This document shows, in pieces, positions 10,654 to 62,502 of a stretch of DNA of 64,000 nucleotides (within the stretch, counting starts at the first letter, position 1; each line of letters begins with the position of its first letter). Position numbers and translations under genes: made by a program. Source of the stretch: Escherichia phage vB_EcoM_Kelasse; the sequence record MW749001.1. One strand, given 5' to 3'. The notes under the pieces were generated by a model, which made no database searches, was not told where the DNA came from, and saw nothing but the letters and a program-made list of their open reading frames with translations.

Positions 10654-11536
10654 AGTTCAGTGCATTTAGTGCATTGTTCAGTTTAGAACGTTGCTTCGTG
10701 AGATTTTTGACTTTTTCTTGTGCTTTTTCTAGCATCTTTTCAGCTTCTAACACTTCATTGGTCGCTTTAACGAGTTCATCATCTACTGCCTTAAGGGACT
10801 TCTCAATCGCATCCGCGTGCCATTTTTCAACAGGTTTAAGACTCGGATTTTCAATAGGAAGAAAATTCACTTTATTGAATTTCCATGCATCTTTATTACC
10901 TGAACTATACATCCAAAATTTAGGATCATTTGACGAGTAATTAGATAAATTTAAGTTATCTTGCACTTCCTGCTTTTTCTCTTGCGGGACTTCGTCCTTT
11001 CTCAAAAAATCGTATTTAAATGAAACGATCATATCAAGTTCATATGTTGTCGTATCTAATTTAAATCGTTCGAAATGCTGCGAAATCTTAGATTGAACAG
11101 CAGCAACAACATCCATATACTTAAATGCTTCTGTCAGCTGTGATTTAAGACATTCACAAATTGAAAGAGAATTTTTTGTATTAGGTTTAAAGCTAATTCG
11201 TGCAGTTCTATTATTTTCTTTTAATGGTCTTACTTCCATCTGAAGAGTATAACCATCAAATTTCAGGTTCTTTAAGTTAATATCAGAACCTTTTAATCGA
11301 CTAGCCGTCGACAAAATTTGCTTTAATTGTTTACGGAATAGAGCAATAAATCTCCATTCAATACGATAATGATTTGGATTGAAAAATCCAGATGATAAAT
11401 CGACCTTACTCTGACCAACACCTTGAACAAATAGAGGATTTTTATAATCAATAGTTTTACAGAAATCGGTGAGCTGCTCACGAGCAGTCCATTTGAGTAA
11501 TATACCCTGCTTCATTAAAATGACGTAACCATTCAC
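10652..11536 (-). CDS. hypothetical early protein with C-terminal coiled coil (294 aa, start may be internal)
   Basis: ORF; KPVEKW linker followed by helical C-terminus EAEKMLEKAQEKVKNLTKQRSKLNNALNALN. Confidence 0.55.
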   Translation of the reverse strand: MNGYVILMKQGILLKWTAREQLTDFCKTIDYKNPLFVQGVGQSKVDLSSGFFNPNHYRIEWRFIALFRKQLKQILSTASRLKGSDINLKNLKFDGYTLQMEVRPLKENNRTARISFKPNTKNSLSICECLKSQLTEAFKYMDVVAAVQSKISQHFERFKLDTTTYELDMIVSFKYDFLRKDEVPQEKKQEVQDNLNLSNYSSNDPKFWMYSSGNKDAWKFNKVNFLPIENPSLKPVEKWHADAIEKSLKAVDDELVKATNEVLEAEKMLEKAQEKVKNLTKQRSKLNNALNALN

Positions 11537-11672
11537 TGCTATTCATATATTTAAAGTGAATATCACGATTAACTTTATCAGGGTCTAAATTATTTTGACA
11601 CAAAAATGTCATAACATCACGAGTATAGCTGGCATTACGAACCATATCTTCAATTTGAGAACGAGTTTTCAT
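11478..11672 (-). CDS. small hypothetical ORF (64 aa)
   Basis: ORF overlapping the start of the downstream gene. Confidence 0.35.
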   Translation of the reverse strand: MKTRSQIEDMVRNASYTRDVMTFLCQNNLDPDKVNRDIHFKYMNSSEWLRHFNEAGYITQMDCS

Positions 11673-56109: not shown

Positions 56110-59250
<3,141 letters not shown>

Positions 59251-59278: not shown

Positions 59279-61258
59279 ATGACTTTATTATCTCCGGGCA
59301 TTGAGCTCAAAGAAACTACGGTTCAAAGCACCGTGGTTAATAACTCTACTGGTACAGCAGCTTTGGCCGGTAAATTCCAGTGGGGTCCTGCTTTTCAGAT
59401 TAAACAGGTTACAAATGAAGTAGATTTAGTTAATACTTTTGGTCAACCAACCGCTGAAACTGCTGACTATTTTATGTCTGCGATGAATTTCTTGCAGTAC
59501 GGAAATGACTTACGAGTAGTTCGTGCTGTTGATAGAGATACCGCTAAAAACTCATCTCCGATTGCTGGTAATATTGAATACACAATTTCTACCCCAGGTA
59601 GTAACTATGCGGTTGGAGATAAAATCACGGTCAAATATGTTTCAGATGATATTGAAACTGAAGGTAAAATTACTGAAGTAGACGCAGATGGAAAAATTAA
59701 GAAAATTAATATTCCTACTGCAAAAATTATCGCTAAAGCGAAAGAAGTCGGTGAATATCCGGAATTAGGTTCTAACTGGACTGCGGAAATTTCTTCGTCT
59801 TCCTCTGGTTTAGCTGCAGTAATAACTCTTGGAAAAATTATTACTGATTCTGGTATTTTATTAGCTGAAATTGAAAATGCTGAAGCTGCTATGACAGCGG
59901 TTGACTTTCAAGCAAATCTCGAAAAATACGGAATTCCAGGAGTAGTAGCTCTTTATCCAGGCGAATTAGGCGATAAAATTGAAATTGAAATCGTATCTAA
60001 AGCTGACTATGCAAAAGGAGCTTCTGCATTACTCCCAATTTATCCAGGTGGTGGTACTCGTGCATCTACTGCCAAAGCAGTGTTTGGATATGGACCGCAA
60101 ACTGATTCACAGTACGCTATTATAGTTCGTCGTAATGATGCTATTGTTCAAAGCGTTGTTCTTTCAACTAAGCGTGGTGAAAAAGATATTTACGATAGTA
60201 ACATCTATATCGATGACTTTTTCGCAAAAGGTGGTTCAGAATATATTTTTGCAACTGCACAAAACTGGCCAGAAGGCTTCTCTGGAATTTTAACTCTGTC
60301 TGGTGGATTATCATCAAATGCTGAAGTAACAGCAGGAGATTTGATGGAAGCTTGGGACTTCTTTGCTGACCGTGAATCTGTAGATGTTCAATTGTTTATT
60401 GCTGGTTCTTGTGCCGGTGAATCTCTTGAAACAGCATCTACTGTACAAAAACATGTTGTTTCAATTGGTGATGCTCGCCAAGATTGCTTAGTACTGTGCT
60501 CACCACCGCGTGAAACTGTAGTTGGAATTCCTGTAACTCGTGCTGTTGATAACTTAGTCAACTGGAGAACGGCAGCAGGTTCATACACTGATAATAACTT
60601 TAATATCAGTTCAACCTACGCAGCAATTGATGGTAACTACAAGTATCAGTATGACAAATATAATGATGTAAATCGTTGGGTTCCATTAGCAGCTGATATT
60701 GCTGGTTTATGCGCGAGAACCGATAACGTTTCTCAGACTTGGATGTCTCCAGCTGGTTATAATCGCGGCCAGATTCTTAACGTTATTAAACTTGCTATTG
60801 AAACTCGCCAGGCGCAGCGCGATCGTTTATACCAAGAAGCTATCAACCCGGTAACTGGTACAGGTGGTGATGGTTACGTATTGTATGGTGATAAAACAGC
60901 TACTTCTGTTCCTTCTCCGTTTGATCGTATTAACGTTCGTCGTCTGTTTAATATGTTGAAAACGAATATCGGACGTAGTTCAAAATATCGTTTGTTCGAA
61001 TTAAACAATGCGTTTACTCGTTCATCATTCCGCACAGAAACTGCCCAGTACTTACAGGGAATTAAAGCTCTCGGTGGAATTTATGAATATCGTGTAGTTT
61101 GCGATACAACAAATAACACTCCGTCAGTAATTGATAGAAATGAGTTTGTTGCAACATTCTACATCCAACCGGCTCGTAGTATAAATTATATCCAACTTAA
61201 TTTCGTCGCAACTGCTACCGGTGCAGATTTTGATGAGTTAACTGGTCTTGCAGGTTAA
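59279..61258 (+). CDS. 18: gp18 contractile tail sheath protein
   Basis: 659-aa ORF preceded by TATAAATA at 59243; T4 size and order. Confidence 0.95.
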   Translation: MTLLSPGIELKETTVQSTVVNNSTGTAALAGKFQWGPAFQIKQVTNEVDLVNTFGQPTAETADYFMSAMNFLQYGNDLRVVRAVDRDTAKNSSPIAGNIEYTISTPGSNYAVGDKITVKYVSDDIETEGKITEVDADGKIKKINIPTAKIIAKAKEVGEYPELGSNWTAEISSSSSGLAAVITLGKIITDSGILLAEIENAEAAMTAVDFQANLEKYGIPGVVALYPGELGDKIEIEIVSKADYAKGASALLPIYPGGGTRASTAKAVFGYGPQTDSQYAIIVRRNDAIVQSVVLSTKRGEKDIYDSNIYIDDFFAKGGSEYIFATAQNWPEGFSGILTLSGGLSSNAEVTAGDLMEAWDFFADRESVDVQLFIAGSCAGESLETASTVQKHVVSIGDARQDCLVLCSPPRETVVGIPVTRAVDNLVNWRTAAGSYTDNNFNISSTYAAIDGNYKYQYDKYNDVNRWVPLAADIAGLCARTDNVSQTWMSPAGYNRGQILNVIKLAIETRQAQRDRLYQEAINPVTGTGGDGYVLYGDKTATSVPSPFDRINVRRLFNMLKTNIGRSSKYRLFELNNAFTRSSFRTETAQYLQGIKALGGIYEYRVVCDTTNNTPSVIDRNEFVATFYIQPARSINYIQLNFVATATGADFDELTGLAG

Positions 61259-61903
61259 TTGATTATGGGGCTTCGGCCCCTATTCTCGAGGAAACAAGTG
61301 ATTATTTCTAAGTTTGTTACAATAAAACCAAGAAATCATTCAAAAATGTGGTCGACAATTCTGGGATATAAAGTATCATATCATGATACAGTATCTGTTC
61401 CAATAGAATTAATGCCAAAGAATAGTAATAAAATAGTTGACGCTAAATGTGATTTGTGTGGTACTAAATTTAGTAGAAGCATTCAACTTTTAAATAGAAC
61501 ACCCACACATGCATGTAGAAAATGTAGCATTAAACAAGTTGCTATTAAAAATTCGGAAGTTCAATCTGGAATAAGCAGACCATGGCAAAGAGGTGATAAA
61601 CATCCTCGATGGACTGGCAAAAGAAAAGAGTTTGCATTATATGCTAGTAGAGTTCATTCTATAACTAAGTCAGCTAAAATAAGAAAAATCTGGTCAAAAT
61701 GGCCGAATGCTGATAAAATAGGAATGTGCGGCGTAGAAGGTGCTTATCAACTCGATCATAAAGTATCTATCAAATATGGATTTGATAATTTAATTCCGCC
61801 GGAAATTATAGCAAGTGTAAAAAATTTAGAAATAATCACTTGGGAATCTAACCGAGAAAAGTCAAAAAGAAATAGCGTAGATCTTTGGGATTTACTAGAA
61901 TGA
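61259..61903 (+). CDS. putative free-standing HNH-family endonuclease (start uncertain)
   Basis: Zinc ribbon CDLCG...CRKC and D-H...N...N core (YQLDHKVSIKYGF...NLEIITWESN) in a basic ORF lying between genes 18 and 19; the first codons overlap a GGGGCTTCGGCCCC hairpin, so the start may be the Met at 61346. Confidence 0.55.
   Translation: MIMGLRPLFSRKQVIISKFVTIKPRNHSKMWSTILGYKVSYHDTVSVPIELMPKNSNKIVDAKCDLCGTKFSRSIQLLNRTPTHACRKCSIKQVAIKNSEVQSGISRPWQRGDKHPRWTGKRKEFALYASRVHSITKSAKIRKIWSKWPNADKIGMCGVEGAYQLDHKVSIKYGFDNLIPPEIIASVKNLEIITWESNREKSKRNSVDLWDLLE
61267..61280 (+). terminator. UUCG-tetraloop stem-loop after gene 18
   Basis: GGGGCUUCGGCCCC 9 nt after the gene 18 stop. Confidence 0.5.
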
Positions 61904-61910
61904 TTCTAAA

Positions 61911-61928
61911 GGCCTGTTTCGGCAGGCC
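61911..61928 (+). terminator. stem-loop after the HNH ORF
   Basis: GGCCUG-UUUCGG-CAGGCC inverted repeat directly after the stop. Confidence 0.4.
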
Positions 61929-61929
61929 A

Positions 61930-61937
61930 TATAAATA
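61930..61937 (+). promoter_or_regulatory. late promoter TATAAATA (distal, after the HNH ORF)
   Basis: Octamer directly after the hairpin that follows the HNH ORF. Confidence 0.55.
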
Positions 61938-61988
61938 CACTATATCCTTAATTCTTTAATTCTATATGCCCTAGGTTAAACATAGGGA

Positions 61989-61996
61989 TATAAATA
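61989..61996 (+). promoter_or_regulatory. late promoter TATAAATA for gene 19 (proximal)
   Basis: Octamer 15 nt upstream of the gene 19 ATG. Confidence 0.65.
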
Positions 61997-62010
61997 CTAC
62001 AGAGGCTAAT

Positions 62011-62502
62011 ATGTTTGTAGATGATGTAACACGAGCGTTTGAATCTGGTGATTTTGCTCGACCTAACTTATTCCAAGTAGAAATTTCTTATCTTGGACAA
62101 AATTTTACGTTTCAATGTAAAGCCACTGCTTTACCAGCTGGTATTGTAGAAAAAATTCCAGTCGGATTTATGAACCGTAAAATTAACGTAGCAGGCGATC
62201 GTACATTCGATGACTGGACTGTTACAGTAATGAACGATGAGGCACATGATGCTCGCCAGAAGTTTGTTGATTGGCAAAGCATTGCCGCAGGACAAGGGAA
62301 CGAAATTACTGGTGGAAAACCAGCAGAGTATAAAAAGAGCGCTGTTGTTCGCCAATATGCTCGTGATGCTAAAACTGTAACAAAAGAAGTCGAAATTAAA
62401 GGCCTGTGGCCTACTAACGTGGGTGAACTTCAATTAGATTGGGATTCAAACAATGAAATCCAAACCTTTGAAGTAACTCTTGCTCTCGATTATTGGGAAT
62501 AA
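62011..62502 (+). CDS. 19: gp19 tail tube protein
   Basis: 163-aa ORF MFVDDVTRAFESGDFARPNLFQVEISYLGQNFTFQ... recognised as T4 gp19. Confidence 0.95.
   Translation: MFVDDVTRAFESGDFARPNLFQVEISYLGQNFTFQCKATALPAGIVEKIPVGFMNRKINVAGDRTFDDWTVTVMNDEAHDARQKFVDWQSIAAGQGNEITGGKPAEYKKSAVVRQYARDAKTVTKEVEIKGLWPTNVGELQLDWDSNNEIQTFEVTLALDYWE

Follow-up and report, generated by a model that had tools for sequence, protein, structure and literature searches.

Between tail sheath gene 18 and tail tube gene 19, the genome of Escherichia phage vB_EcoM_Kelasse (sequence record MW749001.1) carries an inserted segment that is probably a free-standing gene for an HNH homing endonuclease whose translation is strongly self-repressed. 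The segment lies at positions 61259-61902 of the 64,000-nucleotide stretch that we analyzed, which is called the window throughout, and its open reading frame (ORF) is equivalent to gene 19.1 of phage T6. The window represents a segment of a T4-like (Tequatrovirus) genome, with genes 17 and 18, the extra ORF and gene 19.

Evidence for this assignment comes from the precise boundaries of the insertion, its sporadic distribution among related phages, an invariant set of putative catalytic residues in a predicted nuclease fold, purifying selection on the coding sequence, and a predicted long-range mRNA helix over the start of the gene whose pairing is conserved and shows covariation. Nuclease activity, a DNA target, homing, and a regulatory role for the helix are what these observations suggest. 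Gene 19.1 is a known ORF whose function had gone unrecognized, and judged from its sequence it would fall among the free-standing HNH homing endonuclease genes, which are elements of a known kind. It is set apart by belonging to an uncharacterized nuclease clade, by fidelity to one site across genera, by the existence of two domain-swapped alleles, and by an mRNA that is predicted to mask its own start. In the literature searched, we found no description of gp19.1 or of a homing endonuclease between genes 18 and 19.

A precise insertion between genes 18 and 19

Alignment with T4 (NC_000866) delimits the insertion to the nucleotide. In T4 the sequence is TAA-TACGGTGC-ATTCTAAAGGCC..., where TAA is the gene 18 stop codon; at the same place the window has TAA-[644 bp]-ATTCTAAAGGCC... 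The inserted segment (61259-61902, plus strand) is therefore 644 base pairs (bp) long, has a GC content of 33%, and replaces the 8-bp sequence TACGGTGC of empty-site phages; the gene 18 stop codon at 61256-61258 (plus strand) forms its left border. This 8-bp sequence is common to all 14 empty-site phages examined, the boundaries are identical in all 12 occupied phages, and no target-site duplication was found at the boundaries in a comparison of these 14 empty and 12 occupied loci. The gene thus lies in a discrete insertion with clean boundaries between conserved genes, at a site that is otherwise identical in relatives that lack it. At one locus (L037, phage vB_EcoM_CE1), the left junction contains a 4-nucleotide duplication (TTGA TTGA), as a result of which gene 18 stops at TGA instead of TAA and its annotated end is displaced by 4 nucleotides.

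The original prediction held that genes 18 and 19 are adjacent in T4, that the intervening ORF is bracketed by stem-loops and followed by two late-promoter motifs separated by an inverted repeat, and that a mobile element had duplicated or displaced the gene 19 promoter region. The descriptive parts of this prediction are accurate. The T4 spacer between genes 18 and 19 is only 116 nucleotides long and contains no ORF. Stem-loops lie upstream of the ORF (61267-61280) and downstream of it (GGCCUG...CAGGCC at 61911-61928 and CCCUA...UAGGG at 61969-61987), and the motif TATAAATA is present at 61930-61937 and 61989-61996, with the second of the downstream stem-loops between the two copies. However, the proposed effect on the gene 19 promoter region is refuted. 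The sequence from 61903 to the gene 19 ATG is a 100% match to the T4 spacer, including both hairpins and both copies of TATAAATA, and the insert-free T4 genome is base-for-base identical in these elements; duplication or displacement of the promoter region by the insertion is therefore ruled out. This ancestral spacer (61903-62010, plus strand), which also contains the gene 19 Shine-Dalgarno sequence, lies outside the insert and is the same in 14 of 14 empty-site phages, save for single-base differences in three of them. Across the window, TATAAATA is not significantly enriched (15 copies vs 10.4 expected).

Only one hairpin, GGGGC-UUCG-GCCCC (61267-61280, plus strand), arrived with the insert. 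It is located just past the gene 18 stop codon and 8 nucleotides before the Shine-Dalgarno sequence of the inserted gene. Because the insert brings its own hairpin and the spacer keeps another, gene 18 is followed by a hairpin with or without the insert. Hairpins of different sequence occupy the same upstream position in phage VR7, phage S16 and a Klebsiella phage.

Scans upstream of the ORF detected no intrinsic terminator and no plausible sigma-70 promoter, and a search of 60900-62200 against Rfam detected no known RNA family or intron. We considered TATAAATT at 61181 as an endonuclease-specific promoter and dropped it, because this sequence occurs in empty-site phages too. The sequence (61181-61188) resides inside gene 18 and is one base off the T4 late-promoter consensus, and T4 has CATTAACT there. 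The allele in the window lacks TATAAATA directly upstream of the endonuclease gene. In the VR7 locus (L005, approximately 2475-2500), TATAAATA is situated in the loop of a hairpin upstream of the gene, and in Serratia phage CHI14 (L134, lineage P0042) it occurs 11 nucleotides before the endonuclease ATG. Transcriptional arrangements therefore vary among lineages.

The ORF extends from 61298 to 61903 on the plus strand, with a GTG start and a TGA stop, and encodes 201 amino acids; its T6 equivalent is gp19.1, or T6ORF160. A mechanical ORF call instead opens at TTG 61259 and reaches the stop codon at 61901-61903 after 214 amino acids, and a start at ATG 61346 would yield 185 amino acids. GTG 61298 is the start that is common to homologues and annotated in T6, and it appears to be the best choice. 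A Shine-Dalgarno sequence, GAGGA, can be read at 61288-61292 (plus strand) and is mostly base-paired in the predicted fold described below. The 201-amino-acid protein has 36 lysine and arginine residues vs 18 aspartate and glutamate residues and an isoelectric point (pI) of 9.88, which agrees with the earlier description of a basic protein of 185-214 amino acids. Its placement between the sheath and tube genes is likewise confirmed by the coordinates of gene 18 (59279-61258, plus strand), whose product is 99% identical to T4 gp18 at its C terminus, and of gene 19 (62011-62502, plus strand). Terminase gene 17 (57415-59247) is approximately 2 kb from the ORF.

Occupancy of the site is mixed among close relatives, both in Tequatrovirus and in other genera. 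In a phage collection, 382 Tequatrovirus records have an empty, contiguous junction, approximately 78 carry the allele present in the window at 97% identity or more (the T6-type allele, found in T6, PST and Aplg8, among others), and 48 carry a second allele, which we call RB3-type. The nearest database record is that of phage Aplg8, which is 99.6% identical over 60800-62500 and 100% identical over the 644-bp insert; the gene is not annotated in that record. Homologues occupy the same site in Gaprivervirus VR7, Gelderlandvirus S16 and a Klebsiella phage, each of which has close relatives without the gene. The VR7 record names it "19.1, similar to T6 gp19.1". In the S16 group, the insertion is equally precise and falls exactly between the gene 18 stop codon and the ancestral hairpin and promoter. 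Eleven further homologues were fetched from genomes and metagenomes (36-69% identity), including those in phages of Enterobacter, Serratia, Shewanella and Pectobacterium, and in all 11 cases the neighbors are the sheath and tube genes.

The T6-type and RB3-type alleles are approximately 90% or more identical over their first ~60 and last ~215 nucleotides. Their N-terminal domains are only distantly related, the whole proteins are 49% identical, and the 3' boundary of the variable N-terminal cassette is at approximately 61688. This pattern suggests two alleles in which one nuclease domain has been combined with swapped DNA-binding domains at the 18/19 site. All 12 occupied Tequatrovirus loci have an intact ORF, and the ratio of nonsynonymous to synonymous substitution rates (dN/dS) is 0.03-0.09 among T6-type alleles, which indicates purifying selection. 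We dropped the idea that the S16 copy is a decayed gene, because tblastn gives a full-length frame of 206 amino acids with a GTG start. The annotation of that copy (L006, 2090-2710; gp100.1) covers only 106 amino acids, and the gene is probably under-annotated rather than decayed.

Database labels for this gene are inconsistent. It appears as "putative head morphogenesis protein", "holin", "type II restriction endonuclease" or "homing endonuclease" in records AP018814/NC_054907 (T6), MW883059, PQ657814, PP889492 and KT184308. In addition, three records named for phages of other hosts, PV654520 (Pseudomonas phage vB_PSGBLB0006), OR584013 (Pseudomonas phage PsgM02F) and MG010123 (Staphylococcus phage SAJK-IND), contain T4-like 18-19 sequence at 98-100%, which suggests that they are mislabelled or contaminated.

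A zinc ribbon joined to a divergent HNH-like domain

Two domains can be recognized in gp19.1. The N-terminal one (residues 1-97) contains a Cys4 zinc ribbon formed by C51, C54, C73 and C76, whose codons lie at 61448-61525 on the plus strand. Codons for an HNH-like core span 61754-61861 on the same strand, with D153-H154 at 61754-61759, N176 at 61823-61825 and N185-R186-x-K188 at 61850-61861. In an alignment of 43 homologues, D153, H154, S157, G161, N176, L177, W182, N185, R186 and K188 are invariant and the four cysteines are nearly so. The zinc ribbon and the D-H...N...N core had both been pointed out in the original prediction, and this conservation upholds them.

AlphaFold2 produced a confident two-domain model with a predicted local distance difference test score (pLDDT) of 89.7, and a second AlphaFold2 model scored 86.4. 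In the C-terminal domain of the model, a strand at residues 150-154 that ends in D-H, an antiparallel strand at 177-181 and a helix at 182-188 form a ββα-metal unit, and D153-H154, N176 and N185 supply the pattern of catalytic residues expected of such a unit. An hhalign comparison places the D-H, N and N-R-x-K elements in register with D839-H840, N854 and N863 of SpCas9 at an E-value of 0.037, which is not significant. H-N-N variants such as the HNH domain of Cas9 are active nucleases.

Sequence profiles did not detect a known nuclease family. No Pfam or NCBIfam HNH family matched the protein or the 43 members at threshold, and the best match, to HNH_4, had E = 0.078 in a single member. In the Pfam search proposed as a check in the original prediction, neither an HNH nor a NUMOD domain was detected, and the HNH assignment therefore derives from motif and structure. 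For comparison, T4 MobE itself barely passes the HNH profile (21.5 bits vs a cut-off of 21.4). Searches of Pfam, NCBIfam and PDB sequences with the protein and with 43-member and C-terminal profiles returned no nuclease, only weak zinc-finger matches and spurious leucine-rich repeat matches; weak matches to the DUF4379 treble clef occur in 15 of the 43 members. PHROG 5104, labelled "unknown function", matches at 1e-81. A weak profile match to a minus-strand ORF of the window (10655-11542) was dropped, as this ORF does not encode an HNH protein.

A profile search of 1.84 billion representative proteins identified 6540 clusters (E <= 0.001). In many of these clusters, the same C-terminal domain follows other N termini, including helix-turn-helix arrays, DUF7487 and other zinc ribbons. 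Such varied N termini on one C-terminal domain would be the modular build that is typical of homing endonucleases.

On the basis of motif and modeled fold, gp19.1 would be a divergent HNH nuclease of the H-N-N type with a ββα-metal unit, although this step is the weakest link in the assignment of the protein. We infer that H154 acts as the general base, that D153 and N185 are metal ligands and that N176 has a structural role. The N-terminal Cys4 treble-clef zinc ribbon presumably reads the DNA target. With these qualifications, the proposal of a mobile-element insertion in the original prediction holds in substance, through motif, fold, insertion anatomy and distribution, and sequence profiles lend it no support.

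We considered two other roles for the protein. One is that of a zinc-ribbon DNA- or RNA-binding protein whose nuclease-like domain has decayed and become inactive, for example a regulator of late expression. The missing HNH profile match would fit such a protein, as would the replacement of the second histidine of the classical H-N-H motif by asparagine. However, D-H...N...N(R.K) is invariant in 43 of 43 aligned homologues, which argues for an active site; the active H-N-N nucleases and the register with SpCas9 argue in the same direction, and the gene is dispensable in most relatives. We consider an inactive domain very improbable.

The other role is that of an accessory HNH nuclease that serves the phage, as an aid to terminase and packaging or in attacks on host or competitor DNA, and that is gained and lost without being selfish. 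Foldseek found no match in PDB at E <= 0.001 (best 0.4). The two best structural matches are Gme HNH (4h9d) and the HNH protein of phage GVE2 (5h0o), both members of the class of small phage HNH proteins that act together with terminases. The proximity of the ORF to terminase gene 17, the strong purifying selection, and the failure to identify a target site in the flanks are also in keeping with an accessory enzyme. Nevertheless, approximately 75% of Tequatrovirus records lack 19.1, which is thus not needed for packaging, and T4 gp17 has its own nuclease according to its record annotation. Fidelity to one site across genera, precise boundaries and swapped DNA-binding domains are hallmarks of homing rather than of accessory enzymes, and interference competition is compatible with a homing endonuclease instead of being an alternative to it. 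An accessory role therefore appears unlikely, and we prefer the homing endonuclease assignment.

A predicted long-range mRNA helix over the start codon

A repeat search identified a 27-nucleotide inverted repeat (I1) in the gene, with arms that are 93% complementary and 494 nucleotides apart. The 5' arm (61295-61321, plus strand) consists of the last three leader nucleotides (CAA), the GTG start codon and codons 2-8. The 3' arm (61816-61842, plus strand) consists of the codons for V-K-N176-L-E-I-I-T-W, so that the first codons, V-I-I-S-K-F, are approximately the antisense of the catalytic-motif codons N-L-E-I-I-T. When the RNA corresponding to 61259-61930 was folded, the minimum free energy (MFE) was -166.6 kcal/mol (z = -4.7), and none of 20 shuffled sequences was as stable.

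The MFE and centroid structures agree on the core helix, of 21 bp plus 5 bp. Both structures also contain outer helices whose 3' partners lie at 61847-61865 (plus strand). In these outer helices, UUCUCG (61283-61288) pairs with CGAGAA in the codons for R186-E187, GGA of the Shine-Dalgarno sequence pairs with UCU, and UUGAUU (61259-61264) pairs with AGUCAA. In total, approximately 41 bp close a domain of approximately 500 nucleotides, and in this predicted fold both the Shine-Dalgarno sequence and the start codon are covered. As a control, we scored the start regions of the other 55 ORFs of at least 150 amino acids in the window for complementarity to a segment within the same ORF; these reach at most 15.5 of 21 complementary positions (median 13.5), vs 20.5 for 19.1.

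Pairing of the core helix is conserved among the 18 lineages with a homologue at the 18/19 site, of which 14 retain 16-20 Watson-Crick pairs of the 21 core pairs. In the alignment, 81.7% of cells are paired, vs 35-43% when the partner columns are slid. Two positions show compensatory changes. Pair 12:37, which joins the third position of the Ile3 codon to the third position of a Glu codon, is U:A in 12 lineages and C:G in four. Pair 3:46, between leader position -1 and the third position of a Thr codon, is A:U in 12 lineages, U:A in two and U:G in two. Elsewhere in the helix, G:U wobbles occur in VR7, P0013 and P0035. The start codon is GTG in 13 of the 18 lineages, and its G pairs with the C of the Thr codon.

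Partition-function folding gives a probability of approximately 1 for long-range pairing of the start codon in 15 of the 18 lineages. In a sixteenth lineage, P0021, the values for the three start-codon bases are 0.09, 0.81 and 1.00. No start-codon pairing was found in the two most distant of the 18 lineages, one of which is P0042, the CHI14 lineage mentioned above, and none was found in more distant family members at approximately 40 IMG/VR loci.

The usual helix is missing from lineages P0007 and P0009, which start with ATG, but each has another helix that covers the Shine-Dalgarno sequence and the ATG. In P0007, UUCAGGAACAAUAUGAUUAUU, which contains both of these elements, forms 21 bp with GAUAAUCAUAUUGUUCCUGAA. 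The latter sequence comprises the P0007 codons for D-N-H-I-V-P-E and is located approximately 45 nucleotides upstream of the usual partner. P0009 has a 17-bp helix at a place equivalent to that in P0007. These seemingly convergent helices are the strongest argument that masking itself is under selection.

The inverted repeat could instead be a feature of the DNA, namely a relic of an inverted duplication, a site for recombination or cruciform formation, or homology for exchange of the N-terminal cassette. Its arms are exact DNA repeats and both code for conserved peptides. The block that T6-type and RB3-type alleles have in common includes the 5' arm, and the variable cassette is located between the arms. 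Several observations argue against this explanation. In VR7, P0013 and P0035, G:U replaces Watson-Crick pairs, and such pairs form only in RNA. Compensatory changes are found at a noncoding leader base and at synonymous sites. The outer helices cover the Shine-Dalgarno sequence, and in P0007 and P0009 a different partner sequence again covers both that sequence and the start codon. Moreover, the 3' boundary of the cassette (~61688) does not match the 3' arm (61816). A DNA-level origin thus seems improbable, and we favor a structure that acts in the mRNA. In the literature searched, we did not find a description of this geometry, in which a ribosome-binding site (RBS) is masked by catalytic-motif codons of the same gene far downstream, and we consider it new.

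Proposed mechanism and comparison with known systems

In a mixed infection, the enzyme would nick or cut the genomes of phages that lack the gene, at or near the 18/19 junction, and recombinational repair from an occupied genome would transfer the gene, along with short flanks, to the empty site. In this phage, the gene lacks a dedicated promoter, and its transcription presumably depends on read-through from gene 18 on the late transcript. Three features, namely the GTG start, the upstream hairpin and the long-range helix, would keep its expression very low. Because the helix is predicted to pair the Shine-Dalgarno sequence and the start codon with the codons of the N-L-E-I-I-T-W and N-R-E-K motifs approximately 520 nucleotides downstream, ribosomes might load only before the 3' arm has been transcribed or while other ribosomes hold it open, which would set a kinetic limit on translation. 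Alternatively, the long duplex could be cleaved by RNase III.

A more far-reaching version of this model is possible, and we offer it tentatively. The self-closing mRNA would dictate the N-terminal peptide, and the helix of 21-41 bp would serve as a kinetic fuse or RNase III target that permits a brief burst of translation; selection for masking would be so strong that lineages that lost the helix rebuilt one with a different partner, and the two domain-swapped alleles would compete for the 18/19 site.

Candidate targets were sought in the flanks of 26 loci, including the window, of which 12 are occupied (seven T6-type, five RB3-type) and 14 are empty. IMG/VR contains very few Tequatroviruses (15 loci, 5 loci), and most loci for this analysis were fetched one by one. 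A patch of clustered, almost entirely synonymous substitutions at the 3' end of gene 18 (61174-61207, plus strand) lies 50-85 nucleotides upstream of the insertion point. Of the 71 differences between the window and T4 in gene 18, 12 fall in one 60-nucleotide bin, and the patch has one amino acid change. Nucleotide diversity (pi) is 0.12-0.16 in the patch vs 0.003-0.04 in adjacent bins, and at least three haplotypes exist among Tequatroviruses. Haplotype A is present in seven of seven T6-type loci and haplotype B in four of five RB3-type loci; the exceptions are an empty locus with haplotype A (L030), an empty locus with haplotype B (L029) and an occupied locus with a T4-like patch (L042). Positions 61201 and 61207 were considered as linked markers of immunity or target and were rejected, as the link seen in 10 loci broke at these three when 26 were compared. 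A silent hot spot beside an endonuclease gene may be what escape from a target site would produce. The two candidate targets are this patch and the empty junction TAATACGGTGCATTCTAAAGG (TAA-TACGGTGC-ATTCTAAAGG), which is destroyed by the insertion.

The right flank, which comprises the spacer and the first ~100 nucleotides of gene 19, is nearly invariant among occupied phages (pi of 0 over 150 nucleotides). Variation occurs in one of 12 occupied loci vs 11 of 14 empty ones (Fisher p = 5e-4), and deeper in gene 19, after approximately 200 nucleotides, occupied phages are as diverse as empty ones. This homogeneity fits a short co-conversion tract, in a small sample of related genomes.

Several results weigh against the interpretation proposed here. 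No single-nucleotide polymorphism in the flanks of the 26 loci is perfectly linked to presence of the gene, and the left flank shows no homogenization among the 12 occupied loci. An hhalign comparison of the family profile with T4 MobE found no similarity (probability 0.07%), and the literature searched contained no cleavage, homing or expression data for gp19.1. For the helix, the compensatory events are few and occur among related sequences. The covariation measures were reached by just 2-5 of 500 shuffles, a count that, as the tool warns, is not a probability. Conservation of pairing is also partly confounded with constraint on the protein, as both arms encode conserved peptides.

If correct, the assignment provides a function for gene 19.1 of classical phage T6 and for its relatives in 6540 clusters, which have been filed as hypothetical or mislabelled, and it describes a nuclease domain that no Pfam or NCBIfam model covers. 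Every homologue examined occupies the one sheath/tube site, and the hosts named for these T4-like phages number at least seven (Escherichia, Salmonella, Klebsiella, Enterobacter, Serratia, Shewanella and Pectobacterium). With their exchanged DNA-binding domains, the two alleles could be used to study the evolution of target specificity and, if the swap is real, would provide a natural system for specificity switching. The predicted masking of the start would add a new geometry to the RBS sequestration known from T4, one that is easily tested with reporters, and would mean that RNA structure can constrain the N terminus of a protein. Elements of this kind also shape recombination and marker exclusion among therapeutic T4-like phages in cocktails.

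Among known systems, T4 has a set of free-standing HNH homing endonucleases, MobA-MobE; MobE is the one that has been characterized (PMC2790892, PMC2988022). Like the T4 mob genes, 19.1 is free-standing, is found in an intergenic spacer between conserved phage genes, and is distributed sporadically among close relatives; its product joins an HNH-type motif to a separate DNA-binding domain, and its expression is, by prediction, restrained at translation. In Mob proteins, the HNH domain is fused to a distinct C-terminal region (PMC2988022). The order is reversed in gp19.1, in which the DNA-binding domain is N-terminal and the nuclease domain C-terminal. The Cys4 zinc ribbon as DNA-binding module, the D-H...N...N motif, and the location in a late structural-gene cluster are further differences from Mob, and on the comparison with T4 MobE, gp19.1 does not appear to belong to the Mob family. 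Gme HNH (4h9d) and GVE2 HNH (5h0o) are single-domain proteins, unlike the two-domain gp19.1, and no sequence-level relationship to them was found.

Sequestration of the RBS by local hairpins is an established restraint on I-TevI, I-TevII, I-TevIII and segB of T4 and on mobE of phage Aeh1, and such hairpins are also present in T4 genes e, soc, 25, 26 and 39 (PMC2988022). The predicted 19.1 structure resembles them in that it occludes the Shine-Dalgarno sequence and start codon on a long polycistronic transcript. In the known cases the hairpin is local, and transcription from a late promoter omits its upstream arm, whereas in 19.1 the masking arm is approximately 520 nucleotides downstream, in the codons for its own catalytic motif, and there is no internal late promoter here to relieve it. 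Because the masking arm is inside the coding sequence, every full-length 19.1 transcript can close. In kind, this masking resembles the long-range coat-replicase pairing of RNA phage MS2.

Finally, SegH and Hef replace mobC and mobE in relatives of T4 (cited in PMC2988022), and the 18/19 site likewise carries different endonuclease alleles in different T-even phages. For T6, one "other HNH" is listed by Petrov et al. (2010), and none for RB3. The T6-type and RB3-type alleles, however, do not come from different nuclease families: they have one nuclease domain in common, and the difference between them is confined to the N-terminal domain.

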